The notes under the pieces: generated by a model
The model's input: the letters and a program-made list of their open reading frames with translations, nothing else
Database searches by the model: none
What the model was told of the DNA's origin: nothing
Translations under genes and position numbers: made by a program
Shown: piece after piece, positions 6,120 through 34,487 of the stretch
How positions within the stretch are numbered: position 1 is the stretch's first letter
How the letters are laid out: every line of letters begins with the position of its first letter
From: an uncultured virus (IMG/VR IMGVR_UViG_3300021364_000011)
Lineage: Duplodnaviria; Heunggongvirae; Uroviricota; Caudoviricetes
IMG/VR virus record: IMGVR_UViG_3300021364_000011
Length of the DNA stretch: 64,000 nucleotides
Strand: one strand, 5' to 3'

Positions 6120-6962
6120 TTATTTGTTTCTATTCTTATTTATTGATTGTCTTGCCAGTTGAGCTATTCTCTTTTGATGTGCTTTTTGTTTTGACTGTTC
6201 TTTCTTTCTTAATTTATCTGCAAGTCTTTCTTCACCCATAGCGAGTGTTGATAATTGATTGATAATAATTTGTAGTGTGCTTGGACTCATTGTCGATAAC
6301 ACTTGCATCTGTTGTTTAGTTAAACCTTTAACTTTTCTCAATGCTTTTTTGACATCTACTGCTTCTGTTAATTCGTCACCCATTTTTAGAAATAGAGTTC
6401 CTTTCTTTTGTTTCTTATCTGAAACAGTCATACCTGCCATTCTAGCAAACTGATTGATTAGACCAACACCATCAGAAGGTCTCTTAGAATACATGTTTTC
6501 CATTTTCTTTTGTAATTCTTTTGCAACTGTTTTTATGATTTGATGTGCAGGTGCAACCATTCTACCTTCTTCGACATAATACTTAGAATCTTCTGGATTA
6601 GGTAGAGTATCTTCTGGAACACAATTAGGAACCATTTTGTTTCCTTTCTTTTTCATACCAACTTTCTTATAACCATCCCAACATGCCTCATTTGCATCGT
6701 CTTCGCCAAACATCTTCTGATACTTCTTAGTATGTTTAGAAGGTTTAGTCTTTGCACCTGCATCACCTGGTGCTGGTTTGTATGCATTTGGGTTGTCATC
6801 ATCCATACTTGCACCCTTTTTAAAGTGTGCATCTCTAGCGCTCTTTTTATCTTTATCGACACCTTTGTAGTATTTCTTAGGTTGTGTTCCTTTCTTATCG
6901 TCTACATCGGGGTCTTGAGCGACTCTTCTAAGTTTTTCTCTGAGTTGTGTTAATCTATCCAT
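6120..6962 (-). CDS. Hypothetical modular protein, probable head-associated
   Basis: 280 aa; EACWDGY..GMKKK..VPNCV module common in marine T4-like phages. Confidence 0.6.
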   Translation of the reverse strand: MDRLTQLREKLRRVAQDPDVDDKKGTQPKKYYKGVDKDKKSARDAHFKKGASMDDDNPNAYKPAPGDAGAKTKPSKHTKKYQKMFGEDDANEACWDGYKKVGMKKKGNKMVPNCVPEDTLPNPEDSKYYVEEGRMVAPAHQIIKTVAKELQKKMENMYSKRPSDGVGLINQFARMAGMTVSDKKQKKGTLFLKMGDELTEAVDVKKALRKVKGLTKQQMQVLSTMSPSTLQIIINQLSTLAMGEERLADKLRKKEQSKQKAHQKRIAQLARQSINKNRNK

Positions 6963-8278: not shown

Positions 8279-9486
8279 TATTTGTCCCAATTCTTTGCTA
8301 CTGTAAAGTTATTTAGTGAAAACTCCATACGGTCTACGAGTTTAACTGCTTTACCTGTTTTATCAATCGCAACATAACCTTCTGGATTTACAGTCTTAAA
8401 TCCATTGTCTGTTTTTACAAATGTTCCGATTGCTTTTGTTCTATTTAAACCTTTGATAATTACTTGTTTTGCATCTACAAGATTAGTCTGAAATACACCC
8501 AATGCAGTAATCATCTTCTTCAAACCTCTTATTTCTCTGATTACTTGTTCTTTGAGTTGTCTCTTTTGTTCTTTAGTCTTTTCCATTTTAACTTTGGCGA
8601 TTACTTTATCATCAAAGTATTTACTGACATGATTGAGATACTCATTATATGAAGGATTGAATCGTGCATTTCTTACTAGACTGTTCATATAAGTCTTGTA
8701 GGTAGCACCTGGCGCTTTTGTAGATAACATTTCATTGACTTTTCTGAACTTAGTTAAATCATTTTTAGTTATTTGTCTGAATGTTTTACCGACTGTTGAT
8801 AATGATTTAGTCACTAACACAGTTTCTTTTGCAGTCAATGTAGAATTACCTGATACATCTTTATAAGTTGCATCGTCCATCCAAATATCTCTACTAGAAC
8901 CTAAACTTGAAATATCAGCACCAAAACTGGCGGACAAGTCGGCAATCGCACCACCAGTGTATGTGGTGTGCCAAACGATACCATACTTCGCCTGGTCGAT
9001 TGCTTGTCCTAATTGAGATGATGCCATAGCGGCATACATGATAGTGTTAGGTTGAAAAGTAATATAGTCAACACCACCTATCTTCTTTGATTTCTTATCT
9101 GATTCAGTGAACATCAAGTCACCTTGAAGTATCTTATCACCCCATGATAACTTTGATAGAAATCTATACGACTCTAAGAATTTCTTTTCTAAATCACCTG
9201 ATAGTTCTGATGCGTTCTTAATTTCTTGTTCTGAGGTGTAGAACAAAGGTTCTTTATTGAATAGTGATTTCTTTGCGACAAAGAATCTGCCGTCTTCTGG
9301 ATTCTTACCTGCCCATATAGCAGGTGCGCCATCCCATTTAACAGTCATGTTTACTTGTTTGGGTGAATTACCTTTCATCATATCTCTGAGAGATTGTAGA
9401 AAGTTTATAGATGCACGACCACCATCAATACCATTGTTGATGATTTCGTCTTCTAAGTGTTCTAAATGTAGATTTTTGACTGCCAT
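8278..9486 (-). CDS. DUF6267-like protein with ligase-type nucleotidyltransferase motifs
   Basis: HLEHLED, TVKWDGAP, QGDLMF, EGYV, KLVDR. Confidence 0.6.
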   Translation of the reverse strand: MAVKNLHLEHLEDEIINNGIDGGRASINFLQSLRDMMKGNSPKQVNMTVKWDGAPAIWAGKNPEDGRFFVAKKSLFNKEPLFYTSEQEIKNASELSGDLEKKFLESYRFLSKLSWGDKILQGDLMFTESDKKSKKIGGVDYITFQPNTIMYAAMASSQLGQAIDQAKYGIVWHTTYTGGAIADLSASFGADISSLGSSRDIWMDDATYKDVSGNSTLTAKETVLVTKSLSTVGKTFRQITKNDLTKFRKVNEMLSTKAPGATYKTYMNSLVRNARFNPSYNEYLNHVSKYFDDKVIAKVKMEKTKEQKRQLKEQVIREIRGLKKMITALGVFQTNLVDAKQVIIKGLNRTKAIGTFVKTDNGFKTVNPEGYVAIDKTGKAVKLVDRMEFSLNNFTVAKNWDK

Positions 9487-12041: not shown

Positions 12042-12118
12042 TGGCGTCCCTGGCAAGACTCGAACTTGCAACCTACTGCTTAGAAGGCAGTTGCTCTATC
12101 CTGTTGAGCTACAGAGAC
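12042..12118 (-). tRNA. tRNA-Arg(UCU)
   Basis: Cloverleaf; anticodon arm ACTGC-CTTCTAA-GCAGT; GTTCGA T-loop; encoded CCA. Confidence 0.95.
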
Positions 12119-12127
12119 AGAAAGATT

Positions 12128-12221
12128 ATGAGGTCACCCACCCAAAATAGAAAAGGAGAAGGAGAGTGACCCCAATTGTGCATATGAAACTATAGAGATT
12201 CCATATCCACTTTAGTAATTG
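12128..12221 (-). ncRNA. Candidate two-hairpin small RNA with anti-Shine-Dalgarno loop
   Basis: Two stems whose G-U pairs work only on the minus strand; loop contains CUCCUU twice. Confidence 0.45.
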
Positions 12222-12232
12222 ACCGAATTCTC

Positions 12233-12628
12233 TCATAGAAAAAACTCTTTGTCTCTTGGAACATTGTGTAGTTTAGCGTATACTAAACTGTCATTAGTTT
12301 CTTTGAATAACTCTAGCGCCAAATCAGCAGCACAGGCATCATCGTATGATTTACCGCCTATGTTCCATTGTGTTTCAGCATAATCATCATTAAGATTTCT
12401 TGCAAAATGCCAATCATATAAAGTAAATGTTCCATACTTTGAATCGCCATTATCATCATGAACTTGATAATCAATACAGAAATCTGTTGATATCTTATCA
12501 CCGATGCCCTCGAACCAAGGGTCACCGAACATTGTTTTTAAATCGTTAGTCGAAGCAAAGAGATAACTTTGCTTCGAAGTGCCTGCACCACCATCAGTGC
12601 AAGGTATAAATTGTATTGTTTGCGCCAT
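12233..12628 (-). CDS. Hypothetical early protein
   Basis: 131-aa ORF, AGGAG SD. Confidence 0.6.
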   Translation of the reverse strand: MAQTIQFIPCTDGGAGTSKQSYLFASTNDLKTMFGDPWFEGIGDKISTDFCIDYQVHDDNGDSKYGTFTLYDWHFARNLNDDYAETQWNIGGKSYDDACAADLALELFKETNDSLVYAKLHNVPRDKEFFL

Positions 12629-13086
12629 TAAAAATCTCCTTCAGCAACTTGAACTACAGTAAAACCTTTCGCTCTCCACATGTCGACAACTTTTTGTCTA
12701 TCATCGAAGATTAAATCAATCTTACCACCCATTTCGATAAACTTATCAGCAAGTTTAGACTTGAACTCATCATCAGGAGTGAAGTCGTCATTAGGTCTCA
12801 AAAAGACACCTTTATGACCCTCGCCAATCCATTCTCTAATCTGTCTCTCAGTGACTTCTCTTTCTGACTCATTTCTAGCAGAGAAGAAAGCAACTTCATC
12901 ACCTTGAGCAATAAATCTTTTTGCGATATCACAAACCCATTGAACAGGAGTATCATCTTCTGTTGCTTTTCTAAAAGCATTCCAATCAGGTTTGAAACCC
13001 TTATCGCCATTTACAAGATGTCTTCTATGCTCAACATCAGCGATAGTGCCGTCTACATCAAAAATTATTGTTTGTTTTTTCATCAT
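12628..13086 (-). CDS. HAD-family phosphatase (PseT/PNK 3'-phosphatase-like domain)
   Basis: IIFDVDGT, FFSAR, IFDDRQKVVDMWR..G..V.QVAEGDF. Confidence 0.8.
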   Translation of the reverse strand: MMKKQTIIFDVDGTIADVEHRRHLVNGDKGFKPDWNAFRKATEDDTPVQWVCDIAKRFIAQGDEVAFFSARNESEREVTERQIREWIGEGHKGVFLRPNDDFTPDDEFKSKLADKFIEMGGKIDLIFDDRQKVVDMWRAKGFTVVQVAEGDF

Positions 13087-13092
13087 AGGTAT

Positions 13093-13122
13093 ATGGTATC
13101 AAAAAATAGGGGTCATTGTCAA
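13093..13122 (-). promoter_or_regulatory. Early sigma70-type promoter TTGACA-N18-TACCAT
   Basis: Member of a repeated promoter family; ATG 6 nt after the -10. Confidence 0.8.
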
Positions 13123-13125
13123 CCC

Positions 13126-13335
13126 CTACACACCCATATTCATTGCATCATCGAAGAAAATGTTTGCCATTTTACTGATTAGTAAATCTCTTTCTACATC
13201 ATCAACATCGTCAACTTTGTGACCGAAGTTTAGAAATAGAACTTGTTTAACTTTCACATCTGACATGGCATCAACCGCATCGATGGCATCACTAATTGCT
13301 CTGTCGGCAATCATATCGTTTATTGGATGACTCAT
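13126..13335 (-). CDS. Hypothetical early protein, similar to 43516..43740
   Basis: 69 aa; D.VD.MSD pattern shared with 43516..43740. Confidence 0.55.
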   Translation of the reverse strand: MSHPINDMIADRAISDAIDAVDAMSDVKVKQVLFLNFGHKVDDVDDVERDLLISKMANIFFDDAMNMGV

Positions 13336-13430
13336 CTTATATCTCCTATCAAAATCATTAAAAATACCCCTAGTAGTGGCATAATGAAGTCACTATCTAG
13401 TAGTCCGTGTCTTTGTATAAATCTCATCAT
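13332..13430 (-). CDS. Leaderless 32-aa membrane peptide (MMRFIQRHGLLDSDFIMPLLGVFLMILIGDIR)
   Basis: Hand-translated; starts 6 nt after the -10; ATGA coupling to the next gene. Confidence 0.5.
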   Translation of the reverse strand: MMRFIQRHGLLDSDFIMPLLGVFLMILIGDIR

Positions 13431-13436
13431 AGGTAT

Positions 13437-13466
13437 ATGGTACTAAAAAATTAGCCCCATTGTCAA
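13437..13466 (-). promoter_or_regulatory. Early sigma70-type promoter TTGACA-N18-TACCAT
   Basis: Near-copy of the 13093..13122 promoter. Confidence 0.8.
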
Positions 13467-13469
13467 CCC

Positions 13470-13913
13470 CTATGGATAGGATATTAGATGTGCATCTGAA
13501 CCATCTTGTAAAAATCTATTCAGTGTTTTATGAGTTTGCCATCCGTGTCTATTATGTGACCATCTTCTGACTGCATGATTGTCGACATGAATGTGTGCAT
13601 AATGAAATGGATATTGTTCTTGTAAAAAATCCATAAGGGCATCAGATGCCCCATTTACTTTTCTTTTCATACAGGTATCCATCCAATAGTATGCGAGGTC
13701 ATTATCGAATTCTTCTGCATATCGTATCATACCAACAACATATCCGACAACTTCATCTTTATCGTCTATTGCAACCCATGAGTCTGTAAGTAATGGCACT
13801 AAAAATTGCCACAGTTGTTTAGGCCAGAGGTCCATATGAAAGTGTGATGTCTGTTGTATTTCAAAACAGGCATCTACATCGTTCGGTGTTATTTTTCTAA
13901 TTCTATAATTCAC
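13470..13913 (-). CDS. GNAT-family (RimI-like) acetyltransferase
   Basis: YRIRKITPNDVD.CFEI, VVGY, GAS.ALM, HIHVDN.A, DGSDA. Confidence 0.6.
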   Translation of the reverse strand: MNYRIRKITPNDVDACFEIQQTSHFHMDLWPKQLWQFLVPLLTDSWVAIDDKDEVVGYVVGMIRYAEEFDNDLAYYWMDTCMKRKVNGASDALMDFLQEQYPFHYAHIHVDNHAVRRWSHNRHGWQTHKTLNRFLQDGSDAHLISYP

Positions 13914-13920
13914 AATAAAA

Positions 13921-14010
13921 TGGCGGAGAGGGTGGGATTTGAACCCACGATACGATTTCTCGTATGCTGGTTTTCAAGACCAGTGCATTCAACCACTCTG
14001 CCACCTCTCC
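13921..14010 (-). tRNA. tRNA-Ser(UGA)
   Basis: Cloverleaf with long variable arm; CTGGT-CTTGAAA-ACCAG; CCA. Confidence 0.95.
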
Positions 14011-14016
14011 GAAAAA

Positions 14017-14092
14017 TGGTGGAGCTAAAGAGATTCGAACTCTTGACCTCCGCCGTGCAAAGGCGGCGCTCTCCCAACTGAGCTATAGCCCC
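14017..14092 (-). tRNA. tRNA-Ala(UGC)
   Basis: GGGGCTATAGCTCAG...; CCGCC-TTTGCAC-GGCGG; CCA. Confidence 0.95.
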
Positions 14093-14094
14093 AC

Positions 14095-14169
14095 TGGCAC
14101 CCTGTAGGAGAATCGAACTCCTGTTGCATGGATGAAAACCATGTGTCCTAACCACTAGACGAACAGGGC
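14095..14169 (-). tRNA. tRNA-Glu(UUC)
   Basis: CATGG-TTTTCAT-CCATG anticodon arm; GTTCGA; CCA. Confidence 0.93.
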
Positions 14170-14170
14170 A

Positions 14171-15448
14171 TTATCTTCCAACTTCTCCAAGATACTTTTG
14201 TTTAGTTTCTTCCCATGACATACTTATAACATCATCATAGAAGAGAGTTGTATCTAATGAAGTTCTCTGATTGTTAACTAAATTTGTAATTCTTTTTCTA
14301 GCGTATCTTTCTTTCCAAAGATTTGTTAGACCCTCTACTGAGGTGTCGAATGACTTAACTAACTTATCTTCTTCTATTTCACCTCTAAGATATTCTCTAC
14401 TGTTATCATAGAATGTAGAGAAGTATATACCTCTTTGATGTTCTGACTTAATAATCTCTTTTGGTATATCTAACTTAGAATACATGAATTGTCTCATACG
14501 ATTTCTATGGTCTCTCTTTAATGTTTGACCATTCTCTCTCTTCGCAACATACAGTAAAAAGTATCTCTCGTTATAATGATGTTCAGCGTAGTCGAGCATC
14601 GCTCGTTCAGTATCTTTGGAAATCTCGAATGATAGAGACCCTTTACTGAATCCCATTTTCTTCCAATGTTTCAATCTATCGTATTGTGATAGATGATTTG
14701 CTTTTGATTTACCATAGAGAGATGTAGTTGTCATTGACACCAAGGTGTCTCCATAGTTTTCTTTCCATTGATTCTGAACTTCATCTGCAAGACAAAGTAA
14801 AGCAAGTAGTTTACCACCTGTGTAATTAAACCCTAGAGGTTGAGTTGGTAGAATACTAGAACCGATTGCTGTGCAATTTAGTTTACCACTGTTAGTTTTG
14901 TATTCTCTATCCCACCCTATATAGTCATCTCTTGGAGTAAGGTCGATAAAATCACCAGTAATACAAATAACGCCAAGATATTTCTCACTAACCTTATCTC
15001 TAATAATGTAATGTAAGTTTCTTCCAATGTTCGAAGAGTTCTTTTGAGTGTGAGTGAAAGTTCGTAAACAATTCCATTTCTCTGTAAGCGTGCCAGCACT
15101 CTGTCTATCTTTCTCCGAATCGGTGTATAATAGTTCTGGTTCAAGTTTCTCAAAATCTTCGTGAGAGTTTGGGAACCATATATTGTTTTTAGTTTCATCG
15201 ATTAACTTCGCATGTTCCTGATTGATTAATTGTGTTTCTTGTCCGAACAATGTTGAAACTGATTGTGTCGGATACTTCATATGAATCTCTTGATACTTCT
15301 GATAGAGTGTATATTCTTCTACACTCATATTACAAACAAGATTCAGGTCTGTAATAATCTTTTGTCTTAGTTCTTCTTTAGATAATATTTCTTTCTCAGT
15401 TCTATTCGCCTGATACTCGTCATATTGTTTTTGAACGAATGGTTCCAT
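14171..15448 (-). CDS. DUF4338 (DruA-like) domain protein
   Basis: GRNLHYIIRD..YLG, RDDYIGW, PTQPLGFNYTGGKLLA, TTSLYG..SQY. Confidence 0.6.
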   Translation of the reverse strand: MEPFVQKQYDEYQANRTEKEILSKEELRQKIITDLNLVCNMSVEEYTLYQKYQEIHMKYPTQSVSTLFGQETQLINQEHAKLIDETKNNIWFPNSHEDFEKLEPELLYTDSEKDRQSAGTLTEKWNCLRTFTHTQKNSSNIGRNLHYIIRDKVSEKYLGVICITGDFIDLTPRDDYIGWDREYKTNSGKLNCTAIGSSILPTQPLGFNYTGGKLLALLCLADEVQNQWKENYGDTLVSMTTTSLYGKSKANHLSQYDRLKHWKKMGFSKGSLSFEISKDTERAMLDYAEHHYNERYFLLYVAKRENGQTLKRDHRNRMRQFMYSKLDIPKEIIKSEHQRGIYFSTFYDNSREYLRGEIEEDKLVKSFDTSVEGLTNLWKERYARKRITNLVNNQRTSLDTTLFYDDVISMSWEETKQKYLGEVGR

Positions 15449-23586: not shown

Positions 23587-24984
23587 TTACCGATGCAATT
23601 CTTTAAACACATAATATTCCTCCTTGCCATGATGTAATACATGAAAATCAGGTAAACTCTTAATATAGTTTCTATACTTTCTGAATGTAATTGATTTACC
23701 CCAACCCATGTAATCTCTAATCTCTCTGATTGATACTTTCTTTTTCTCTTTAATAAACTCTTCTATCTTATCTCTAGCATCTGTATGACTCATCACTTGA
23801 CTATTAGAGTCTAAGGCATCTTGTATTAGTTTTTCAAATCCACTAACCCTATTACGCCAACTATGAACCTGACGACAATGTTCTAATGCAACCTGTGACT
23901 GTTCTAGTCTATACTGATTGTCATCTAGTAATCTTTCAAAATGTTCTACAGCAGTATCGATATCTCTGAAACCTGTTTCTAGATTGCCAAAGATTTCTTT
24001 TGTTTCGTTGCCCACATCATAGACATAAACTACACCTTGACCCAAACCATCTTGCGATGACATTGCCCAACGATTACCTCCATGATAACCTGCAACACAG
24101 GTTCTAAGTTTATGTAAGTAATCTTCTCTGCTTGGTTCGCCACCTAGTTCAAAGAATGATGTATCATCAAAATGTTTTGATAACTTTGTTGTCTGGTCTG
24201 CCATTGTAAACCATACTTTGAAATCTTGTCTTTTATTTCTGAGTCTTTTTATAATCTGTAGAAACTTATCATAACCTCTGTAAGCATGAGTTCTATGATT
24301 GAATACGATTCTCTTCTCAACTTGTTCTACAGGTTTATCAATTATCTTATCATCTTCAAAACCAAGATACACAGGTGTCATTATGTCTTCTAGTTTTTCC
24401 ATTGTCTTTTCACTGTAATGTTCTTCTAGTTCAGACAAGAGTTCTTCTACCTGTGTTTTAGTATTGAACCCACATTTATCCATAGTCAACATACCTGCGA
24501 CATTGTAATGATAGAATGTATGTTTGTTATTTGGGTTGTTCTCTTTGTTCTCTATCCAATGTGAGTAACCAATAACAGGTATATCACTAGAGTATAAATT
24601 CTGTAGATTGTTTACAACATTAACTGTTTGTTCAGGTAGATGTGACCAAACTACATCGTATTCGACATTCAATGTATTGAGAACATCTTTCCAGAAACCT
24701 ATGAAATCATAATGACTTCTCATTGAATTAGGAAATGTCGGTTGGTCAAACAAAGGTTGATTTACATTTGGAAAATCTAATTGTTCACAAAACTTAGGCA
24801 TAGGAATTGTGAAGTATAAATCATCTCTTTTAAGATTTAATTCTCTAATAACATTCATCATAACTAAGACGAATGAATCTTTTTCTAATTCTCGTTGTCT
24901 AGTAATGTTAGGTATAACTAGAATATGATGTTGATTGCCTTTAACTAAGTCAAAATCGAAGTCTTGCAAATCATATAAGTTCAT
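23587..24984 (-). CDS. GT-B glycosyltransferase with C-terminal HTH-like tail
   Basis: DVVWSHLPE, IVFNHR...KFL.II, SREDY..L, SW; 465 aa. Confidence 0.65.
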   Translation of the reverse strand: MNLYDLQDFDFDLVKGNQHHILVIPNITRQRELEKDSFVLVMMNVIRELNLKRDDLYFTIPMPKFCEQLDFPNVNQPLFDQPTFPNSMRSHYDFIGFWKDVLNTLNVEYDVVWSHLPEQTVNVVNNLQNLYSSDIPVIGYSHWIENKENNPNNKHTFYHYNVAGMLTMDKCGFNTKTQVEELLSELEEHYSEKTMEKLEDIMTPVYLGFEDDKIIDKPVEQVEKRIVFNHRTHAYRGYDKFLQIIKRLRNKRQDFKVWFTMADQTTKLSKHFDDTSFFELGGEPSREDYLHKLRTCVAGYHGGNRWAMSSQDGLGQGVVYVYDVGNETKEIFGNLETGFRDIDTAVEHFERLLDDNQYRLEQSQVALEHCRQVHSWRNRVSGFEKLIQDALDSNSQVMSHTDARDKIEEFIKEKKKVSIREIRDYMGWGKSITFRKYRNYIKSLPDFHVLHHGKEEYYVFKELHR

Positions 24985-26108
24985 CGTATGATATCAATAT
25001 CCCTTTTCTTAGACCAAACTTCTAGTTCAGTTCTTAATCTTCCGTCTCTCTGTAGATTCTCATATCTTTTAGAAGCATGTTTCTTCCACCATGCAATCAC
25101 ATTATCAAGTTCAAATCTATCATAGTTGACATTCTTTTCTAACACATCTGTTTCTAGGTTCATATACTCTTTGACATTCTTATAACCATATGTTCCTAGA
25201 TATTGTCTTTTTCTTTCAGTAAGACCTTTTGCATCTAAGAAACATTGTTTAAATGGTTTGATTAAGTCACTGTTATGTTCTTTCAAAGAGTTAGTGATAA
25301 TCTGAATCATTTTGTTTTGTGTCTTTAGTTTCTTAGACGATGCATGTTCTGGAACTAGAGAGTTGCCATTGTTCTGATTCTCAAACCAATCTTTTAGATT
25401 TCTGTAATCGATATCTGCAAGTGAAGGCACAAAATCTGATTCAGTCAACCCTATGAACTTCAAGTAAGGTTTCATACCATCATACATTGATGTAGTCTTT
25501 GATGAACCATACAGTGAAGTAGTTTCGAACATACAAAAGTTTGTATTATATTTAGCGTTCAAAGTTTCCCTTGCATAATGCGAATTGCATATAGCGGCGA
25601 GAAGTTTACCACCAAGATAATTAAAACCAAAAGGTTGTGTAGGGATAATATTAAACCCCATAATAGCAGAGTCATTAAATCTTTTCATAACATCTGCATT
25701 GAGAGTATCTAAAGGTTTACCTAAGAACTCATTACGAGGTTTGCTATTAATAGTAGGACTGCCAAATCGAATAAATCCCACAATCTTATTCGTATTCTTT
25801 TCATATACTACCCACTTTAAAGTTTTACCTGGTATTGAACTTTGGATTATTTGTGATGCAACAATCTCTATGTAATCATCATACACATCTGATTCTCTAC
25901 ATTCAAACTCCATATCATTTGGGTGCATATCAAAGTCTTGAAACATCTCATCTTCTGGACCCATGCCAAAGAGTGGCGTAGGTAATGCATCTATCTTTTC
26001 GAGTTTGAGTTTTCGTAAGTATTCATCGATACGGTCAAAGTTTCCATAGTAATCTATGAAGACCTTGGCGGCGTATTCGGCATTTGATTTAGAAAGTATT
26101 GTAAGCAT
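24981..26108 (-). CDS. DUF4338-like protein, paralog of 14171..15448
   Basis: IPGKTLKW, GFIRFGSP, PTQPFGFNYLGGKLLA, FETTSLYG..SMYDG. Confidence 0.65.
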   Translation of the reverse strand: MLTILSKSNAEYAAKVFIDYYGNFDRIDEYLRKLKLEKIDALPTPLFGMGPEDEMFQDFDMHPNDMEFECRESDVYDDYIEIVASQIIQSSIPGKTLKWVVYEKNTNKIVGFIRFGSPTINSKPRNEFLGKPLDTLNADVMKRFNDSAIMGFNIIPTQPFGFNYLGGKLLAAICNSHYARETLNAKYNTNFCMFETTSLYGSSKTTSMYDGMKPYLKFIGLTESDFVPSLADIDYRNLKDWFENQNNGNSLVPEHASSKKLKTQNKMIQIITNSLKEHNSDLIKPFKQCFLDAKGLTERKRQYLGTYGYKNVKEYMNLETDVLEKNVNYDRFELDNVIAWWKKHASKRYENLQRDGRLRTELEVWSKKRDIDIIR

Positions 26109-26162
26109 AAAAAAACCCAATACCATGATACCACAGTATTGGGTTATTGTCTAGTGACTTTT

Positions 26163-26679: not shown

Positions 26680-26752
26680 TGGAGCGAGATGCCTGCTTCG
26701 AACAGGCAGCTCTTAACTGGTAGTTAAGCGTTTTGCATTAAACTAATCTCGC
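26680..26752 (-). tRNA. tRNA-Gly(ACC), atypical
   Basis: GCGAGAT/ATCTCGC acceptor, U73, CCA; CTTAA-CTACCAG-TTAAG; GCCTG-TTCGAAG-CAGGC. Confidence 0.85.
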
Positions 26753-26802: not shown

Positions 26803-27213
26803 TTATTTAATTTTAATTGATACTGGTTTATCTTCTTCTGGAATAACTCTTATCAATTTGACATGTAGAATACCATCTACCATGTCTGCACCCTTAACTT
26901 CAACATCATCTGCAAGTGTAAAACTTCTTTTGAAGGCTCTAGATGCAAGTCCTTTGTGAACAAAATCTTTTGAGTCTTCATCGATTTTACCTTCGATAGT
27001 TAAGAGAGTTTTCTCTTTAGTAATTTCAATATCTTTCTTACCGAATCCTGCAACTGCAAGTTCAATGCAAAAGTTCTCTGCATCTTCCTTTACAATGTTA
27101 TAGGGTGGGTAATTAGTTTGAGTGTGATTAGATAGACGATTGAGTTCGTCAAAGTATCTATCAAATCCAATTGTGAGCGGTCTGAATTGACCAAATATAT
27201 CTAAATGTGTCAT
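26803..27213 (-). CDS. Hsp20 / IbpA-like small heat-shock protein
   Basis: IGFDR, NYPPYNI, IELAVAGF, HKGLA.R.F.RSF.L, A.M.DGIL. Confidence 0.93.
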   Translation of the reverse strand: MTHLDIFGQFRPLTIGFDRYFDELNRLSNHTQTNYPPYNIVKEDAENFCIELAVAGFGKKDIEITKEKTLLTIEGKIDEDSKDFVHKGLASRAFKRSFTLADDVEVKGADMVDGILHVKLIRVIPEEDKPVSIKIK

Positions 27214-27269
27214 AAGTCCTCCTTAAAGCGACTGTTTATTAATGTTCTTCACCTCTTATGAGCATGAAG
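27214..27269 (-). promoter_or_regulatory. ROSE-like RNA thermometer (two G-bulge hairpins)
   Basis: AGUC-G-CUU-UAAG-GAG-GACU sequesters the SD and contains UCGCU; second hairpin CUUCAU-G-CUC-AUAA-GAG-GUGAAG. Confidence 0.6.
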
Positions 27270-27272
27270 TGT

Positions 27273-27354
27273 AGAGAACCGAGCTCTTTTGAAGATTGAA
27301 TTGCTTCTCCAATAAATTGGTTTGTTATCAATCCGAGCTCTTTTGAAGTTCTCT
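27273..27354 (-). ncRNA. Structured leader element with perfect 16-nt direct repeat (CTTCAAAAGAGCTCGG x2)
   Basis: Repeats at 27279-27294 and 27333-27348, enclosed by AGAGAAC/GTTCTCT and GATTGA/TCAATC stems. Confidence 0.6.
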
Positions 27355-27360
27355 TACTAT

Positions 27361-27394
27361 ATTATATATGTCTTTTTACAGATTTTTCAAGGGG
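27361..27394 (-). promoter_or_regulatory. Promoter for hsp20 (CCCCTTGAAA-N18-TATAAT; -35 also sigma32-like)
   Basis: Directly upstream of the structured leader. Confidence 0.55.
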
Positions 27395-27459
27395 TTTTTA
27401 TAAAAAAAGTGACCAAACTTTATTGATTCTACCTGACTTCATTAGTTTATGTAATGCCC

Positions 27460-27744
27460 TCATGCCATTCTCTCCAATTCTGAGAACTCACATGTTTTAA
27501 AACCATTTGGTGTGGTAACTTTGAAAGTGTTTTTTATGGTGTTTTTAGATTCAAAATACTTCTTACCTCTAAGACAATCTGGTGTTAAGATTTGACCTCT
27601 AAAATAAGATTCGTCTTTCAGTTCGAATATGATACTTGCATCTTTCATGAAGTATACTTTTTTCACATCGGATTTTTCTATTGTTTCATCTGCCTGTGCA
27701 AATCCGACTAAAAACAAGGCAGATACTAATGCATATTTAAGCAT
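27460..27744 (-). CDS. Small secreted protein
   Basis: Signal peptide MLKYALVSALFLVGFAQA; AGGAG SD. Confidence 0.65.
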   Translation of the reverse strand: MLKYALVSALFLVGFAQADETIEKSDVKKVYFMKDASIIFELKDESYFRGQILTPDCLRGKKYFESKNTIKNTFKVTTPNGFKTCEFSELERMA

Positions 27745-27854: not shown

Positions 27855-28061
27855 TTAGTTAAAAACTATGTTCGACTTTCCTAACTTATTTCTTCTGACT
27901 ATTTCGTTCTTAACCTTTTGTCTGAGTTTCGGTATCACTGGTTTATTATATGCTTCGATTAACTCTGAGTTAGATTTACACTTCATATACTCATGAACAG
28001 TTGTGACCTTCTTTGTGTTTCGGTCAACTTGTTTTGAGGTTTTTCCAAATTTTATAGGCAT
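27855..28061 (-). CDS. Small basic hypothetical protein
   Basis: 68 aa, AGGAG SD. Confidence 0.6.
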   Translation of the reverse strand: MPIKFGKTSKQVDRNTKKVTTVHEYMKCKSNSELIEAYNKPVIPKLRQKVKNEIVRRNKLGKSNIVFN

Positions 28062-28080: not shown

Positions 28081-28686
28081 TTATCTTTTTTTACAAATCT
28101 TTTTTGCTCTATGGGTCACATTTATATTATTTGCAAGAACAAGTGCCATAAATGTATTTGTTCCCCTTATAGATGCTTTGTTTAAATTACCATTTCTCCT
28201 GTCATATTCAATAGCGGGTGTTAATACTGCAACCTTATAAAAAATCATAGTATCAAGCGATGGGTCTTTACCAAAGATTGGGTTTGCTTCTTCTACACAT
28301 TCGTATTTAAGACCATGATATGTTGACCATATGTCTGCGAACTGTAAGAAAACAAATAGTGTCCAGTCTCGATTAGAAGGTGGGTCAATCAGTTCCCAAC
28401 GGTGTGAATATTCGTACCTTTTCGGATTTACCCTTAACAAGTATTCTGTCGACTTCTGTAAATGCTCTTGATGGACAGCATTGATAAGTTCGTTCCGATA
28501 GCAACAAGTCCACCCCATCATAATTTCTTGTTTGTCCTTCGAGTCTAGCTCCAAGGTTGACGGCATCTCCAATGACGGAATAGTCAAATCTAATTTCTGA
28601 CCCCATGTTTCCGACAATACATTCTCCTGTGCTAATGCCGATGCCGACATTAATAGGAGGCAGATTGAGAGGAGATAATTCTTCAT
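28081..28686 (-). CDS. Secreted/membrane protein (DUF5658-like C-terminus) overlapping the cyclase 3' end
   Basis: Signal peptide; LQFADIWST..GL...EANP motif. Confidence 0.55.
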   Translation of the reverse strand: MKNYLLSICLLLMSASALAQENVLSETWGQKLDLTIPSLEMPSTLELDSKDKQEIMMGWTCCYRNELINAVHQEHLQKSTEYLLRVNPKRYEYSHRWELIDPPSNRDWTLFVFLQFADIWSTYHGLKYECVEEANPIFGKDPSLDTMIFYKVAVLTPAIEYDRRNGNLNKASIRGTNTFMALVLANNINVTHRAKKICKKR

Positions 28687-30235
28687 TTAATTGTTTAGTT
28701 GCTTCTAATACTTCTAGAGCGGATTTCACTGCAAGGTCGGCGTGGTCTTCACAATCAAGTGGAGCATTCCAAAATGCCATGATACAATCGCCCATATACT
28801 TATCTATGGTTCCACGGTTATTTATGATAATCTTAGTTTGCACATCTAAGAACTTGTTTATCAGTTCTACTAGACCTTCGGGGTCATCATTGTTTTTATA
28901 TGCTTCTGAGATAGGTGTGAACCCACATATGTCCATAAACATGAATGTCATTTCTTTTCTTTCGCCACCTAGTTTAAGTTTACTTGGGTCTTTCTGTAGT
29001 TCTTCAACCATCTCAGGAGATAAATACTTTTGGAACTGTTTCTTAATTTGTTCTTTGAGTTGATAAGTTGTATAGTATTGATTGAAAGAAGCATGTCCAA
29101 ATACTATTAAGGAACTAATTGATGACCAGAAGGTATCGAAAAGAACGAGTTGCGAAGTCCAAACATAGTATCCCCCACCCAATTGAAGTCCAACAATTCC
29201 TAGACTCACTATCGCCGAAAGCGTTGTGGAGACATTGTAGACCACAATCAATATTCCTAGAAGCACTATCAGAAGAAGAACAATCTCAAGCAATTCAAGA
29301 TAGTAGGATTGTTGTATACGAATGTCTTGCAAGACGGTATGGAGAATTGAGGATTGAACTTCATGGGGATACTTTGCACCCAATGGGGTTGAAATTGGAT
29401 TATTCAGACCTTCCGCAGTCAGACCATAAACAAGAATCTTATTACTAAGATTAGATTCAGGTAAGTCAGCGAAAGAAACTCTGTCAAATTTATTCCAATA
29501 AGATATCATTATATCACTTGTTGGAGTTGTCGAAATGGGAGGTTGTTTTCCCATTCTAATCCACTCTACGCCTAATTCAGGAACTACTCTTGTCTGATAC
29601 GATTGTTGGTCAGTCCATGCTCTGAGAAATTCTAATGCGATTGAAGGATATATTTGTTCGTTAGCAGATACTAATAAAGGTGCTGAACGAATTGTGTTAT
29701 CGAAGTTGGCAGTTCCCATAATCGATGGCGTAGCACTTGTTATTCCGACACCATAGGTGTTCAATTGTAGTATCTCAATTGGTGTTGCGATTCCAGGATA
29801 ACCCCATATACTTTCAGCAATATCACCCCCACCAAAAGTTGTAGTCGGCACATAAGGTGCCTGACCTGTTTGTTTTTGTGTAGTAGGTTGTGAACCCAAT
29901 ATTGTTAATCGATTGACTAATGCTTCAGCGAACTCATCATCTTTGCCGAATCTATCAGGTTCACTAAACACCATTGTAAAGATATGGGTATTTGTTGGGT
30001 CTGTTTCCCATAATACATCTGCGTATACATTTCTAGGAAAAGGAAACTGACCGTGTTTCTCTAGTGACTTCTCATCTATGTCAACTAAAACTATGTTGTC
30101 TACTAAGACTTCTTCTTTTTGTTGATGTAGAAAATCGAACCATGACCATGATATGTTTTCTATGAAGTAAGGATTCCAAATCTTCAACCCAACTAGAAGA
30201 CCAATAGTCCCTAGTACCATTTTCCAATTATACAT
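28385..30235 (-). CDS. CHASE2-domain class III adenylate/guanylate cyclase
   Basis: IVLVDIDEKSL..G.FP.PR (CHASE2); 3 TM helices; FMDICGFT, DKYMGDCIMAFW, DYSVIGDAVNLGARLE, VKGK. Confidence 0.93.
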   Translation of the reverse strand: MYNWKMVLGTIGLLVGLKIWNPYFIENISWSWFDFLHQQKEEVLVDNIVLVDIDEKSLEKHGQFPFPRNVYADVLWETDPTNTHIFTMVFSEPDRFGKDDEFAEALVNRLTILGSQPTTQKQTGQAPYVPTTTFGGGDIAESIWGYPGIATPIEILQLNTYGVGITSATPSIMGTANFDNTIRSAPLLVSANEQIYPSIALEFLRAWTDQQSYQTRVVPELGVEWIRMGKQPPISTTPTSDIMISYWNKFDRVSFADLPESNLSNKILVYGLTAEGLNNPISTPLGAKYPHEVQSSILHTVLQDIRIQQSYYLELLEIVLLLIVLLGILIVVYNVSTTLSAIVSLGIVGLQLGGGYYVWTSQLVLFDTFWSSISSLIVFGHASFNQYYTTYQLKEQIKKQFQKYLSPEMVEELQKDPSKLKLGGERKEMTFMFMDICGFTPISEAYKNNDDPEGLVELINKFLDVQTKIIINNRGTIDKYMGDCIMAFWNAPLDCEDHADLAVKSALEVLEATKQLNEELSPLNLPPINVGIGISTGECIVGNMGSEIRFDYSVIGDAVNLGARLEGQTRNYDGVDLLLSERTYQCCPSRAFTEVDRILVKGKSEKVRIFTPLGTD

Positions 30236-31196: not shown

Positions 31197-32345
31197 TTAG
31201 TTAGATTGATTGATTATAATCTCAATTGAAGGGTCGCCATTACCAAACTCAATGATACCTTGATAACCATCGACATTTGTTTCTAAAATACCTGCACCGC
31301 CAGCGGCGACAACTATTTCTATGACACCATTCACATTACGATAAAAATATATGTCTCCGTCTTGAACAAAGACATTGTATTGTGAATCTTTATTAAATCC
31401 TAATACTGCACCTCTGAGGTTTACATCAAATGTTCCTCCTGATGATGCCTGAACATCTGAAAGTTGAACTGTAGTCTTTTCTAATTCTTCTACAACATCT
31501 AATAAGTCTACGAGAAAGTCAACATCTAATAAATCTATATCTAATTCTGAAAACTCTAGGTCTTCTTCTGTATCTGCAAGAGCATCACCCTCTAGTTCAT
31601 TAAACTCTAAGAAATCTACATCTAAAAGACCTTGGTCATCATACAAATCATCTTGTGCTTGTTCTTCTATTGCTTGTCTGACTTCGTTAGGTGGATTAAC
31701 AATAAACATATTGTCAATCATTGAAGGTGTAATATTACTGATGACTACTGATTTAGTAGGTGGCGAATCTAATGATGACACCATAGTCGCCTGATATGCT
31801 TCAGTAAGTGTTATTGTTCCGCCTTCGTTAGTCACTTCTATTTCTCCTGATGAATCGCCATTTTCATCTGGTAATAATATGACAAGTGACCTTCCTAGTT
31901 CGTCTATGGTTGTTGTAAAATCTGTTCCTTTGATTGATATTTGTGCCGTAGGTGTTGACACTTTGACATTCTTTTTCTTTATCTTACTGCCTTTACCAGA
32001 AGTAAATCTTGCAGTACCTTGAACCATTCGTATTGACATACGAGATAAATCTGGATTGGGGTCGTAATATGCTTCATCAATATAAGCATATGTGTTCTCA
32101 GTCATATCGAGAACTTCATCATCTAAGAAAACGATTTTCATTCTACCGCTTTCTGTTTTCGCTTCGTCTTTAAGTAAGATATCTTTTCCTACTTCGTTTG
32201 TAATTTTTTCTGAATTTCGGGTAAGGAATCCTTCACCACTTGATTCTCTGATATCACCAATGGGGTTGGCGAATGCAACCCCACTGATTAACAAAGTATT
32301 AAGAATCGCTAGACGAATCTTTTTGATTGATTTGAATGACTGCAT
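31197..32345 (-). CDS. FecR-domain periplasmic protein
   Basis: D...T..GRM.I.F.D...., GTARF.SG, V.TPTA.I.IKGTDF, GEIEV.N. Confidence 0.85.
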   Translation of the reverse strand: MQSFKSIKKIRLAILNTLLISGVAFANPIGDIRESSGEGFLTRNSEKITNEVGKDILLKDEAKTESGRMKIVFLDDEVLDMTENTYAYIDEAYYDPNPDLSRMSIRMVQGTARFTSGKGSKIKKKNVKVSTPTAQISIKGTDFTTTIDELGRSLVILLPDENGDSSGEIEVTNEGGTITLTEAYQATMVSSLDSPPTKSVVISNITPSMIDNMFIVNPPNEVRQAIEEQAQDDLYDDQGLLDVDFLEFNELEGDALADTEEDLEFSELDIDLLDVDFLVDLLDVVEELEKTTVQLSDVQASSGGTFDVNLRGAVLGFNKDSQYNVFVQDGDIYFYRNVNGVIEIVVAAGGAGILETNVDGYQGIIEFGNGDPSIEIIINQSN

Positions 32346-33042
32346 TTTCTGAATCAACATCAAGTGTTATGATAGCGTTCGGTGTTGAACAAGCATTACT
32401 TGCCCCACTTACGCATGTGCCTGATATCTGATTGATATCTACATCTGCTGAATCGCCATCTAATGTAAATGTCAATGAGTTTGCACCATCATTTTGTAAT
32501 GTGTTGATATTGTTTGATGAACCATCAATGTCTAGATTCCAAACAATGTCATCTGATTCCCAATCAATGTCAAAGACATTGCTAGTCGAGCCTGATTGTA
32601 AAACTAAGTCGGCATCCAATCTTTCTGCACTTGCTCCAACTTTACCTTGGTCTATATCAAAAGTGTTTGAACTTCCTGTTATAGCAAAGTTAATATTAGA
32701 ACTGTCTGATGAACCTGTCGCACCGATATCCCAATCAAAAATATTGGAATCTCCTGTGACATCTAACTTATAATATGAACTATCTGCTTCTAATGGTCCG
32801 TATAAGATGTTTTGATTTCCGTTGAAATCTAAATCTAATTCGAGTGTAGAACCAGTTATTGTCATAGCAGTTGGAGAAGATGAAAAATCATTCCCTCCTA
32901 TTTTGTTACCAAAACCTACTTGGTCAATATAAAGTTTCAATGTATCACCAACTTGGGTGATTTTTACTTCGTTATCATCAGTGGCTTGTGCGAAAACAAA
33001 TGTTGTCGACATTAGTAATACTAAACTTAAAAGTTTATTCAT
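32299..33042 (-). CDS. Curlin-like beta-solenoid secreted protein
   Basis: Signal peptide; repeated G.SN.F...Q/D units. Confidence 0.65.
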   Translation of the reverse strand: MNKLLSLVLLMSTTFVFAQATDDNEVKITQVGDTLKLYIDQVGFGNKIGGNDFSSSPTAMTITGSTLELDLDFNGNQNILYGPLEADSSYYKLDVTGDSNIFDWDIGATGSSDSSNINFAITGSSNTFDIDQGKVGASAERLDADLVLQSGSTSNVFDIDWESDDIVWNLDIDGSSNNINTLQNDGANSLTFTLDGDSADVDINQISGTCVSGASNACSTPNAIITLDVDSENAVIQINQKDSSSDS

Positions 33043-33988
33043 TTTCGTTATACCCCTCTATTTGCCAGAAACCTCTATCGTGTCCCTGGTATATTAATTC
33101 CAACACGGCAGCTTCTATAGCTGTTCGTGTTGCGTAAGTCACTGACTCATTATTTCCCACCCCATCCTCGATTTCTATGAGTTGAGTTCCTTGTTCTACG
33201 AATCTGAAAACATCTCCGCTAGAACCATAACTCAATACTGTCTTTCGAGTTTGGACATTAAGTAATACTTCTCCAGTGAGAACTGATACAGCTCTCATAG
33301 AGACTGTGACAACATCTTGTTGATATCGTCTTGCGAATCCAATCCCAAGTGTTCTAGCGCCTCGACCACCTGTTTTAATATTGGAATCGTAACCTATAAT
33401 TCCGCCTTCAATAATCATTCCGGCGAATAACAAAGGTTGAACACCTTTTGCTTCAGTGTTAGTTGCCTTTGCATAATCTGTTCTAGCAGAACGAATGATT
33501 TGTCTTTCTCTGACTAAGGCGTCTATACCATTTCGTTCAACTACTCTAAACCATTTTCCTTCACCAGCAGTCTTCAATGCATCGATAACCATCTCGACAC
33601 CACCTTGGGTGACTGCTGTTGAGAAGTCTGCAATACCTTCTCTGTTTTTTCTTTGACCTGTTTTGTCTATAAAATTATAGACTGCTACTATTGGTTTCTC
33701 TTTTGCAGGTGGCAATTGCATAAGTTCAATGTATGAAGGAAGTTTAACTACTTCTGGACCTTCTACACAAATATATTTTCTTGCCATTGTTTTTTTATAA
33801 CCAACATATCCTTGTTTAACTACTGTAAACAAATCATCATTTAAGATACCGTCATTATCAACATCTGTATTAAATCCTTGTGAATATACACCAGCTAAAT
33901 CATTACAATCTTGAGGATTATCAGACCATCTTGGAACTGATGCACACCCTTGTAATAAAATAACTAATGCAAGTAGATACTTAGCCAT
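33035..33988 (-). CDS. csgG: Curli secretion channel CsgG (lipoprotein)
   Basis: Lipobox LQGC; VAVYNF.DKTGQRK, FSTAVTQG, WF.VVER..L.RERQIIR, EGGIIGYD. Confidence 0.92.
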   Translation of the reverse strand: MAKYLLALVILLQGCASVPRWSDNPQDCNDLAGVYSQGFNTDVDNDGILNDDLFTVVKQGYVGYKKTMARKYICVEGPEVVKLPSYIELMQLPPAKEKPIVAVYNFIDKTGQRKNREGIADFSTAVTQGGVEMVIDALKTAGEGKWFRVVERNGIDALVRERQIIRSARTDYAKATNTEAKGVQPLLFAGMIIEGGIIGYDSNIKTGGRGARTLGIGFARRYQQDVVTVSMRAVSVLTGEVLLNVQTRKTVLSYGSSGDVFRFVEQGTQLIEIEDGVGNNESVTYATRTAIEAAVLELIYQGHDRGFWQIEGYNENE

Positions 33989-34487
33989 CGCCGTCACCAC
34001 CGCCTGTATCGGGGTCTTGTCCAAAGTTTCCTGTTCCGACTGGAATTTCTATAACTGTTGTTGTTCCTTCGGTATCAACAATAGTCATCTTTATAAAATC
34101 AGTTCCGTCTTCACCTGTTATAACTTCCCATGTTATTGTGCTTCCTTCTAATACAAACGAACCGAAATTAGATGCAGTGTCATTACTAAACATTGATTCA
34201 ACTAATTGTTTAGATAGCTGTGCATAGATTCTGCTTTCTAGGTTCCTAATAAATTTTGCAAGTGTAGTGTTATCTGCTTCTCTTTCAGCAGCCTTTCTTG
34301 CAGACTCCAATGCGTCTTCTATTGCTTTCTTACGGCTGGACTCTTGGTTCTCAATTGTAAGATAATGAGCACCCGTTCCGATACCTGAGAATGAAGGGTT
34401 TTTAAACTTGTGAACTATCTCCGTTCCGTGAACTTGGAATGATAGTAAAATTGAAATAAAACAAATTGGTAAAATATATTTAATCAT
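33981..34487 (-). CDS. csgF: Curli assembly component CsgF
   Basis: Signal peptide; FKNPSFSG; F...LESRIYAQLS.QL; T.IEIP. Confidence 0.85.
   Translation of the reverse strand: MIKYILPICFISILLSFQVHGTEIVHKFKNPSFSGIGTGAHYLTIENQESSRKKAIEDALESARKAAEREADNTTLAKFIRNLESRIYAQLSKQLVESMFSNDTASNFGSFVLEGSTITWEVITGEDGTDFIKMTIVDTEGTTTVIEIPVGTGNFGQDPDTGGGDGDG

Follow-up and report, generated by a model that had tools for sequence, protein, structure and literature searches.

A pseudo-symmetric double-bulge RNA module in hsp20 leaders and gene 32 terminators of bacteriophage mRNAs

The 64,000-nt stretch of uncultured virus DNA analyzed here (the window) carries, upstream of its hsp20 gene, what we read as a new cis-acting RNA module. 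Conserved in the sense orientation of phage mRNAs, the element is a structured RNA that folds into one hairpin. Its undescribed part is a symmetric double-bulge core, and by kind it is a cis-acting structured mRNA element. Since hsp20 (27213..26803) lies on the minus strand, the element is to be read on the minus strand. The features of the region, in the direction of transcription, are as follows.

27361..27394, minus strand: hsp20 promoter-like site, CCCC-TTGAAA, 18-nt spacer, GACATATATAAT (11/12 in a consensus scan)
27273..27354, minus strand: symmetric hairpin element (minimum free energy (MFE) fold and z-score; covariance-model match spans 27267-27360)
27355-27357 with 27271-27273, minus strand: possible outer-stem extension GUA/UAC (predicted pairs)
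27349..27354, minus strand: outer stem, 5' strand AGAGAA, paired with 27273-27278
27333..27348, minus strand: 5' copy of the 16-nt unit, CUUCAAAAGAGCUCGG (perfect repeat and predicted pairs)
27295..27332, minus strand: variable apical hairpin, stem AUUGA/UCAAU (27332-27328 with 27299-27295)
27279..27294, minus strand: 3' copy of the 16-nt unit (perfect repeat and predicted pairs)
27273..27278, minus strand: outer stem, 3' strand UUCUCU (predicted pairs)
27247..27269, minus strand: conserved leader hairpin CUUCAU-GCUC-AUAA-GAGG-UGAAG, in leaders with and without the element
27211..27233, minus strand: Shine-Dalgarno (SD) hairpin, AGUC-G-CUU with GAGGACU across the SD AAGGAGG; start codon 27213-27211
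26803..27213, minus strand: hsp20, IbpA-like, 136 aa (PF00011, E = 3.4e-17)

The window is part of a T4-like myovirus genome. Its ORFs encode gp23, gp20, gp18, gp17, gp41, gp43, gp44/62, gp45, gp46/47, UvsX, UvsY, UvsW, and RegA; the minus strand carries almost every long ORF. The window Hsp20 is 38% identical to E. coli IbpA and keeps the equivalents of IbpA Y34 and R93. The nearest isolates are pelagiphage and Methylophilales myophages, with Hsp20 identity below 50%. In the promoter-like site, the -35 TTGAAA is at 27390-27385 and the -10 TATAAT at 27366-27361; this is the only intergenic site of the TTGAAA/18 nt/TATAAT kind in the 64-kb window, and it resembles what we take to be the sigma-32 consensus. 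The promoter architecture upstream of hsp20 is conserved among the leaders of relatives. Some 1 kb upstream there is a gene for a CHASE2 nucleotide cyclase, whose synteny is conserved.

The hairpin begins 4-7 nt past the -10 and is thus at the very 5' end of the mRNA, where the earlier reading of the region, made from the sequence alone, had placed it. A perfect 16-nt direct repeat (CCGAGCTCTTTTGAAG) occurs at 27279-27294 and 27333-27348 on the minus strand with a spacing of 54 nt. The window contains two exact 16-mer direct repeats within 150 nt, and 0 of 100 dinucleotide-preserving shuffles hold any, so the repeat on which that reading was built exceeds chance. The 82-nt stretch has an MFE of -23.8 kcal/mol, compared with -13.2 +/- 3.0 for shuffles (z = -3.56; 0/200 as good), and a 145-nt stretch has an MFE of -37.9 kcal/mol (z = -3.76; 0/200 shuffles as good). 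Both folds are predicted to pair the GAGCUC of the 5' copy with the GAGCUC of the 3' copy, leaving two 6-nt bulges, UCAAAA, on opposite strands.

The predicted rod runs inward from the outer stem through a C-G and a U.G pair, a UCAAAA bulge, the 6-bp helix, and the second UCAAAA bulge on the opposite side; its innermost part comprises G.U and G-C pairs, then the inner stem and loop. In the 5' copy, C1 and U2 (27348-27347) pair with G16' and G15', the bulge U3-A8 is at 27346-27341, the helix strand G9-C14 at 27340-27335, and G15 and G16 (27334-27333) pair with U2' and C1'. The 3' copy has its bulge at 27292-27287, its helix strand at 27286-27281, and G15' and G16' at 27280-27279. The apical loop holds a small CCAA/UUGG stem. 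The window element comprises 8 + 6 + 7 pairs, plus the possible 3-bp extension. The outer stem AGAGAAC/GUUCUCU and the inner stem (G)AUUGA/UCAAU(C) named in the sequence-only reading are both present in the sequence and in the predicted fold. The identical strands that it had drawn as an open internal loop instead form the 6-bp GAGCUC helix with two bulges, a pairing confirmed by covariation in relatives. From end to end the core has 2 bp, a bulge, 6 bp, a second bulge, and 2 bp; in this two-fold, pseudo-symmetric form the symmetry proposed earlier holds.

Conservation was examined in protein-anchored loci, namely the best 80 of 463 viral stretches encoding a relative of the window Hsp20. In the leaders of these relatives the promoter is conserved, the two-hairpin 3' leader is conserved, and between them some leaders have the element and others do not. 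Searched with a covariance model made from 33 elements, the set showed the element in 27 of the 80 hsp20 loci, a few of which lack upstream DNA, with E <=1.2e-10; all were in the sense orientation and upstream of hsp20, and the next best score was noise (E >=0.58). In the window the same model gave 59.7 bits (E = 1.7e-15) for the element, the only real match there. The hsp20 leaders of related phages, which the earlier reading had proposed to collect, therefore show an element that is conserved (27/80) and whose pairing covaries relative to shuffles. The other 53 of the 80 leaders are without it, including those of phages with 96% identical Hsp20.

The 16-mers of the hsp20-anchored loci, with up to three substitutions allowed per 16-mer, vary only at positions 4, 10, and 13. 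Pattern scans of viral and metagenome contigs provided at least 131 distinct two-copy matches. Two of the 131 were plainly unrelated and were discarded, one being a GC-rich coding stretch and the other a tandem repeat. The search patterns left positions 10 and 13 open but fixed the other core positions, so the invariance of the latter rests on the protein-anchored set. In 129 of the 129 distinct elements among the matches listed, the two copies complement each other across the central helix, which occurs in seven versions: GAGCUC/GAGCUC (5'/3' copy) in 49, GAGCAC/GUGCUC in 37, GUGCUC/GAGCAC in 30, GCGCGC/GCGCGC in 9, GGGCAC/GUGCCC in 2, and GAGCGC/GCGCUC and GCGCUC/GAGCGC in 1 each. Identity of the two copies, central to the sequence-only reading, is consequently not a family feature, as 67 of these 129 listed elements are non-identical yet complementary.

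Two alignments were compared with shuffled versions, one of 33 elements aligned by MAFFT and one of 100 aligned by the model. Paired cells made up 86.6% of the former (68.8 +/- 1.2 when shuffled) and 87.3% of the latter (70.2 +/- 0.6), figures to be read with the bias of a model-fitted alignment towards the structure and with the inflation caused by kinship of the sequences. The covariation score was 0.479 against 0.169 for shuffles with the 33 elements, and 0.421 against 0.148 with the 100; 0/500 shuffles scored as high in either alignment. The best slid controls reached 0.135 and 0.108, respectively. Two measures that count pairs or pair types showed no excess over shuffles. Stronger evidence for the pairing than the pair-count figures comes from the slid controls and from the seven versions of the helix.

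Pairs of the outer stem covary among relatives, with both sides changed in 12 of 14 pairs. The apical hairpin ranges from 14 to 78 nt; its sequence is free, and its stems are kept through compensation. The 100 model-aligned elements show no change at G9-C14', at G11-C12', or at the mirror pairs of these, and the pair that lies between them is free to vary; the U.G pairs of the core are invariant in both the 33- and the 100-element alignments. The invariant core thus consists of C-G and U.G pairs, a U-N-A-A-A-A bulge, and a 6-bp G-n-G-C-n'-C helix with the second copy, and it continues with a second 6-nt bulge on the other strand, followed by G.U and G-C pairs. This core accepts any outer stem as its closure and any hairpin as its cap. 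There are also versions in which the second bulge is degenerate (loci L083, L105, L106, and L141).

For 128 of 129 elements among the matches listed, the sense strand has the better fold (-25.2 vs -18.6 kcal/mol for the antisense strand), and the element is in sense to the gene in every outer-stem class with an assignable gene. Two palindromic DNA operators were considered and rejected, as in 67 of the 129 listed elements neither copy is palindromic and the copies are reverse complements of each other. More broadly, the repeat could be a DNA-level feature with no function in RNA, such as a recombination cassette, a small mobile palindrome, or an operator pair. Close relatives differ in whether they have it, entire leaders are exchanged between the conserved promoter and the conserved coding start, and identical apical hairpins recur in unrelated outer stems and gene contexts; PeSL cassettes are described as recombination points in T4-like phages (PMC4122927). 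We consider this explanation most unlikely: the complementarity between copies at positions 10 and 13 (129/129 among the matches listed) defeats an operator, the better-folding strand is the sense strand (128/129, likewise), the G.U pairs are invariant, the orientation is always sense, and five of five large records carry one copy, in contrast to multi-copy PeSLs.

When grouped by outer stem, the elements fell into at least 65 classes. The contexts of the 65 classes listed were as follows.

45/65 classes: hsp20 downstream on the same strand, stop-to-stop ORF boundary -62 to 293 nt from the element end
4/65 classes: just after a gp32 gene identified by BLAST
2/65 classes: just after a gp32 gene whose ORF was missed by ORF picking
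2/65 classes: upstream of DUF7207
12/65 classes: loci broken off or without gene assignment

Some of the 12 classes without a gene share a leader type with Hsp20 classes, and the Hsp20 genes of the element classes fall into at least three divergent clades. In the gene 32 context, where the identity of gp32 is supported by PF08804 (E = 7.9e-45), a T-run comes directly after the GC-rich outer stem, so that the element sits inside an intrinsic terminator, for example AGGGUCGUAGAU...GUCUACGACCC then UUUUUU. These terminator-borne elements are 31-68 nt after the gp32 gene and comprise 14 + 6 + 7 pairs; the window element is not of this terminator form. Of 80 gp32 loci, 36 were inspected; four close gp32 relatives among them (L495-L498) have a one-bulge terminator version, and most of the others have plain GC hairpins and then a T-run. 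A version with one degenerate copy was found upstream of a HAD phosphatase gene. The description of the element as part of the hsp20 leader accordingly stands for its conservation at the 5' end of hsp20 mRNAs and fails as to specificity, as it is found in gene 32 terminators too. Identical apical hairpins are found in unrelated outer stems and gene contexts, so that core plus cap moves as a unit.

Each of the five large records carrying the element holds one copy (5/5). Large relatives without it in the hsp20 leader carry no copy elsewhere (0/5; 51-130 kb searched in each). The idea that the element belongs to an essential single-copy gene was rejected on the same count, since 0/5 of these relatives hold a copy. 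None of five cultured complete genomes (Mosig, HTVC008M, Melnitz-3, C48C1, and S-TIM61) matched the element, and a blastn search with one element gave no match in 50,697 phage records, at low sensitivity for a 16-mer core. One two-copy pattern scan of cellular genomes gave eight matches, seven of which were unrelated tandem or coding repeats; the eighth (L195) is a contig of 121 kb, phage-like in character, that had been binned in a MAG. The matches listed from a looser viral pattern scan were mostly chance, with one useful variant. No hsp20 was found in two records with the gene 32 context, both of them fragments that are 26-33% complete.

A small hairpin precedes the element in the commonest hsp20 class, and in the long leaders of another phage group the element is about 200 nt from the likely promoter. 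The element is therefore not always at the mRNA 5' end, which indicates that its function is independent of position. Position-independence and symmetry together point to a trans-acting, symmetric reader. A homodimeric protein fits best, because the core is both symmetric and invariant, stems and cap are free to vary, the element occurs in sense only and at several mRNA positions, and the link to hsp20 is strong but not exclusive. We therefore propose, tentatively and from sequence comparison, that the symmetric core may be a putative docking site for a homodimeric RNA-binding protein. Docking of the dimer would set the fate of the mRNA, that is, its translation or its stability, and the element would act as a second layer of control on hsp20 beside the thermometer.

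The first candidate reader would be the phage's own IbpA-like Hsp20, in a feedback like that of E. coli IbpA. According to the account of IbpA in PMC10474464, this protein binds its own 5' UTR and represses its own translation, which requires R93 together with an aromatic side chain at position 34. All seven aligned phage Hsp20s have Arg at the R93 column and Tyr or Phe at the Y34 column, and IbpB in the same alignment has Q at position 93. The same account has self-repression rely on oligomers rather than dimers, with a thermometer-type UTR as the known target (PMC10474464). Also against Hsp20 as the reader, the element is optional, and the gene 32 and other contexts are not predicted by Hsp20 autoregulation. 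The second candidate would be host RNase III, binding with or without cleavage; the predicted fold offers the roughly two turns of mostly double-stranded RNA looked for by this enzyme, in a helix broken by two 6-nt bulges. The one-bulge and degenerate-second-bulge versions argue against strict two-fold symmetry and indicate that symmetry is not obligatory.

In the window, the part of the leader downstream of the element may interact with it. The outer 3' strand GGUUCUCU (27273-27278 and the preceding GG) can pair with the hsp20 SD region at -9.7 kcal/mol, and 10/200 shuffles were as good. Where the outer stem is AGAGAA/UUCUCU, as in the window, opening of the element would free this anti-SD strand. 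Such pairing amounts to -5.4 to -9.7 kcal/mol in the GAGAA/UUCUC outer-stem class and is absent from the other classes, and this restriction weighs against anti-SD release as the output.

The SD itself is predicted to be masked within the 3' hairpin by ROSE-type UCGCU/AGGAG pairing with a bulged G; the predicted pairs join 27233-27226 with 27215-27221 and leave G27229 unpaired. This hairpin, too, is kept in relatives' leaders with and without the element. ROSE_3 matched 4 of 20 leaders of relatives at 28.9-40.6 bits, below the cut-off of 43 and in the 3' part only; in another scan it matched the L129 leader at 40.6 bits, also below 43. The conserved hairpin at 27247..27269 falls inside these sub-threshold matches, and the window itself had no ROSE match at E up to 10. 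The ROSE_3 match never includes the symmetric element; in L037, for instance, the element ends at 1358 and the match spans 1442-1506. The downstream leader is thus ROSE_3-like, below threshold and as judged from model scores and predicted pairs. The placing of the element upstream of a ROSE-like part was borne out, with the SD predicted to pair with UCGCU around a bulged G and ROSE_3 matching relatives below threshold. Metatranscriptome contigs leave 27320-27700 uncovered; RNA-library contigs from one sample reach across hsp20 and its leader to 27296 plus 11 nt of a variant loop, and another covers the hsp20 leader up to 27270, but the libraries may contain DNA, and neither the uncovered stretch nor the contig ends count as evidence.

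Conserved unpaired nucleotides with variable stems, which we relate to a protein, are equally typical of riboswitch aptamers, and this argues against the protein reading. The element could be a riboswitch-like aptamer with two equivalent sites, following a guanidine-II-like logic and sensing a small molecule or an ion. The outer stem would then be the expression platform, serving as a terminator stem at gene 32 and as an anti-SD or SD-like stem at hsp20. Consistent with this, the unpaired nucleotides are invariant, the stems covary, and a variable hairpin is tolerated; the gene 32 outer stem doubles as the GC-rich terminator stem before the T-run, and the outer stem doubles as the anti-SD strand in the commonest hsp20 class. 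The CHASE2 cyclase gene, with its conserved position, would offer a source of signal, but its synteny is unchanged in hsp20 leaders without the element. Moreover, hsp20, gene 32, DUF7207, and a HAD phosphatase suggest no common metabolite, an element at a gene's 3' end facing a convergent gene has no obvious output, and no alternative fold is conserved across classes. We regard this explanation as unlikely. Its specific form, in which two UNAAAA bulges and invariant G-C pairs would make a phage-only two-site aptamer, the signal could be a CHASE2-cyclase nucleotide, and the output would be SD release at hsp20 or termination at gene 32, appears from sequence to be quite improbable.

The core might also act without a partner, as a self-contained tertiary fold in which the A-rich bulges pack on the invariant G-C pairs of the short helix and produce a rigid knot that hinders RNases or helicases and stabilizes the mRNA at whatever position it occupies. 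The 5' end of an mRNA and its 3' terminator hairpins are the two classic positions of stabilizers, and the element is found at the extreme 5' end in the window and inside 3' terminator hairpins. The G-C pairs G9-C14' and G11-C12' and their mirrors are invariant and the pair between them is free, which fits groove recognition by adenines, and the one-bulge version exists in terminators. However, the small hairpin that precedes the element in the commonest hsp20 class, and the distance of about 200 nt from the likely promoter in long leaders, mean that it is often not terminal. We give this possibility a small chance.

The bulges also call to mind a bulge-helix-bulge (BHB)-type processing site, at which a dimeric endonuclease would cut both bulges and free the apical hairpin or make new mRNA ends. 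The archaeal BHB motif has two 3-nt bulges and a 4-bp helix and is cut by dimeric EndA; RNase III cuts symmetric duplexes in a comparable way. The topology agrees, with two opposite-strand bulges, each 5' of the short central helix, in two-fold symmetry; the apical part varies as freely as an excised spacer would, and the paired length is about 21-27 bp. But the bulges here are 6 nt and the helix 6 bp, instead of 3 nt and 4 bp. A scan of 65 window ORFs found no member of the EndA, RtcB, or RNase III families, though such an enzyme could come from the host, and no joined form was seen in RNA-library contigs, a weak argument as contigs drop rare forms. Processing of this type is, in our view, very unlikely. 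K-turn, loop-E, and CsrA readings were dropped, as the G.A pairs or GGA of their consensus are not conserved.

Rfam covariance models were run against the window region, 16 variant loci, and 20 leaders, and nothing was found on the element; the best hit was RT-9 (14.4 bits, E = 8.1). At E thresholds from 0.1 to 10 these scans agree with the earlier reading, which did not recognize the motif as a described family, and our literature search found no description of a symmetric double-bulge motif. In PMC10690425, a bulk catalogue of structures proposed for viruses, supplement mmc8 contains about 20 candidates located no more than 25 bp upstream of viral HSP20 genes; compared by that listing alone, one of these HSP20-adjacent candidates may include the window element.

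The element is a sharply defined RNA module with about 32 conserved nucleotides, strong covariation, and an unusual mirror-like double-bulge core, and it is found both in 5' leaders and in terminators, with no catalogued family. Small heat-shock genes are commonly encoded by marine T4-like phages, and to our knowledge their control has not been studied. If a dimeric protein reads the element, the two would form a new RNA-protein recognition pair and the element a portable tag. Should Hsp20 be the reader, feedback of the IbpA type would extend to phages and gain a defined operator. If the element binds a ligand, it would represent a new riboswitch class.

Several known systems resemble the element in part. 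In ROSE thermometers, the SD in a small heat-shock 5' UTR is paired to U(U/C)GCU around a bulged G. Like ROSE_3 (RF02523), the window leader is the 5' UTR of an IbpA-like small heat-shock gene, and its 3' part masks the SD via UCGCU and a bulged G; unlike ROSE_3, the element lies outside the ROSE_3 matches, does not include the SD, and also occurs in 3' terminators. IbpA autoregulation likewise concerns an IbpA-like small heat-shock protein with R93 and Y34 equivalents and a structured 5' UTR; as described in the IbpA account of PMC10474464, however, its target is a thermometer-type UTR and oligomers are needed, whereas the element is missing from most related hsp20 leaders.

In the BHB motif, too, bulges on opposite strands flank a short helix with two-fold pseudo-symmetry, and the sequence outside the core varies; its archaeal reader is a dimer. 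The element differs in its 6-nt bulges and 6 bp (in all folded examples), its conserved bulge sequence, and its bacteriophage setting. Guanidine-II (mini-ykkC) RNAs also present a short conserved unit twice, at variable spacing, in a symmetric RNA. Their units are two separate hairpins with kissing ACGR loops, whereas those of the element are the two strands of one duplex, with no Rfam match. RNase III hairpins of the T7 R1.1 type and lambda sib resemble it as long, irregular phage hairpins that a dimeric enzyme reads in 5' leaders and at 3' ends, and PMC3867540 reports that internal distortions modulate RNase III cleavage; in contrast, the element is single-copy per genome and its bulges are strongly sequence-specific. 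PeSLs combine a promoter and a stem-loop at the borders of exchanged T4-like segments, and in their description in PMC4122927 they are multi-copy, simple stem-loops that serve as terminator plus promoter. A genome with PeSLs has many near-identical copies of them in its variable regions. The element, by contrast, is single-copy (in the 64-kb window and in 5/5 large records), follows the promoter, and contains a core that is both complex and conserved.

Upstream of hsp20, the small heat-shock gene whose leader carries the symmetric element, we located three genes on the same strand:

28385-30235 (-), CHASE2 class III nucleotide cyclase gene
28081-28686 (-), DUF5658 gene
27855-28061 (-), ORF of 68 aa rich in lysine and arginine (MPIKFGKTS...), between the DUF5658 gene and hsp20

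The cyclase and DUF5658 genes share about 300 nt, read in different frames, and this overlap is also present in related loci such as L003 and L012; the occurrence of the pair ahead of hsp20 is a conserved synteny. The 68-aa ORF had no match in Pfam or PHROG. It was found again in several element-carrying relatives (e.g., L003, L076, L093, L101), though not in all, being absent from the same place in L012. The phage-type cyclase-DUF5658-element-hsp20 region was also present on L195, a 121-kb contig (genome_contigs) of a Sphingobacteriales MAG. L195 probably belongs to a phage and entered the bacterial MAG through binning; it does not count as evidence for the host.

A second conserved motif, ..AAGGG..(G)AUCGUAAGUGAA..CCUACU.., was observed in long hsp20 leaders, including those of L124, L083, L105, L314, and L322. 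One example is as follows:

L124, oriented 530-640, second motif

Of the 62 loci where this motif was found, 30 have two copies and the others one; it had no match to Rfam in the loci scanned. Its flanks appear to compensate each other. In long leaders it precedes the symmetric element by 50-175 nt, except in L438 (L322-type leader), where it lies downstream.

Downstream of hsp20, tRNA and DruA-like genes were identified in the window:

26680-26752 (-), tRNA-Gly with the unusual anticodon ACC, directly downstream of hsp20
24981-26126 (-), DruA-like gene
14171-15448 (-), DruA-like gene
12042-14169, four further tRNAs

The two DruA-like genes (PF14236; phrog_19197) are paralogues, and the location of one of them shortly downstream of hsp20 and a redoxin gene is conserved in synteny.

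Two other gene sets were found in the window:

31197-34487 (-), CsgG-like (PF03783, E 2.8e-51), CsgF-like (E 1.3e-14), and FecR-like genes
6950-9486 and 12628-13086 (-), fusion of a cytidylyltransferase with an AAA_33 kinase-like domain, DUF6267, and PNKP-type HAD phosphatase

The first set encodes outer-membrane components of curli-secretion type, which are unusual in a phage. Some PHROG matches to the fusion name polynucleotide kinase, and the second set may possibly serve RNA repair or nucleotide handling.

The following predicted promoter precedes hsp20 and is the sole intergenic site of its kind within the 64-kb window:

27361-27394 (-), hsp20 promoter, reading CCCC-TTGAAA ... GACATATATAAT

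Its counterpart in relatives consists of CCCTTGA.. plus GACCCCATATAAT or GACCCTATATAAT. The promoter resembles the sigma-32 heat-shock promoter consensus, overlapping a sigma-70 -10. These features suggest that the host is a proteobacterium and that the phage hsp20 is transcribed under heat-shock control.
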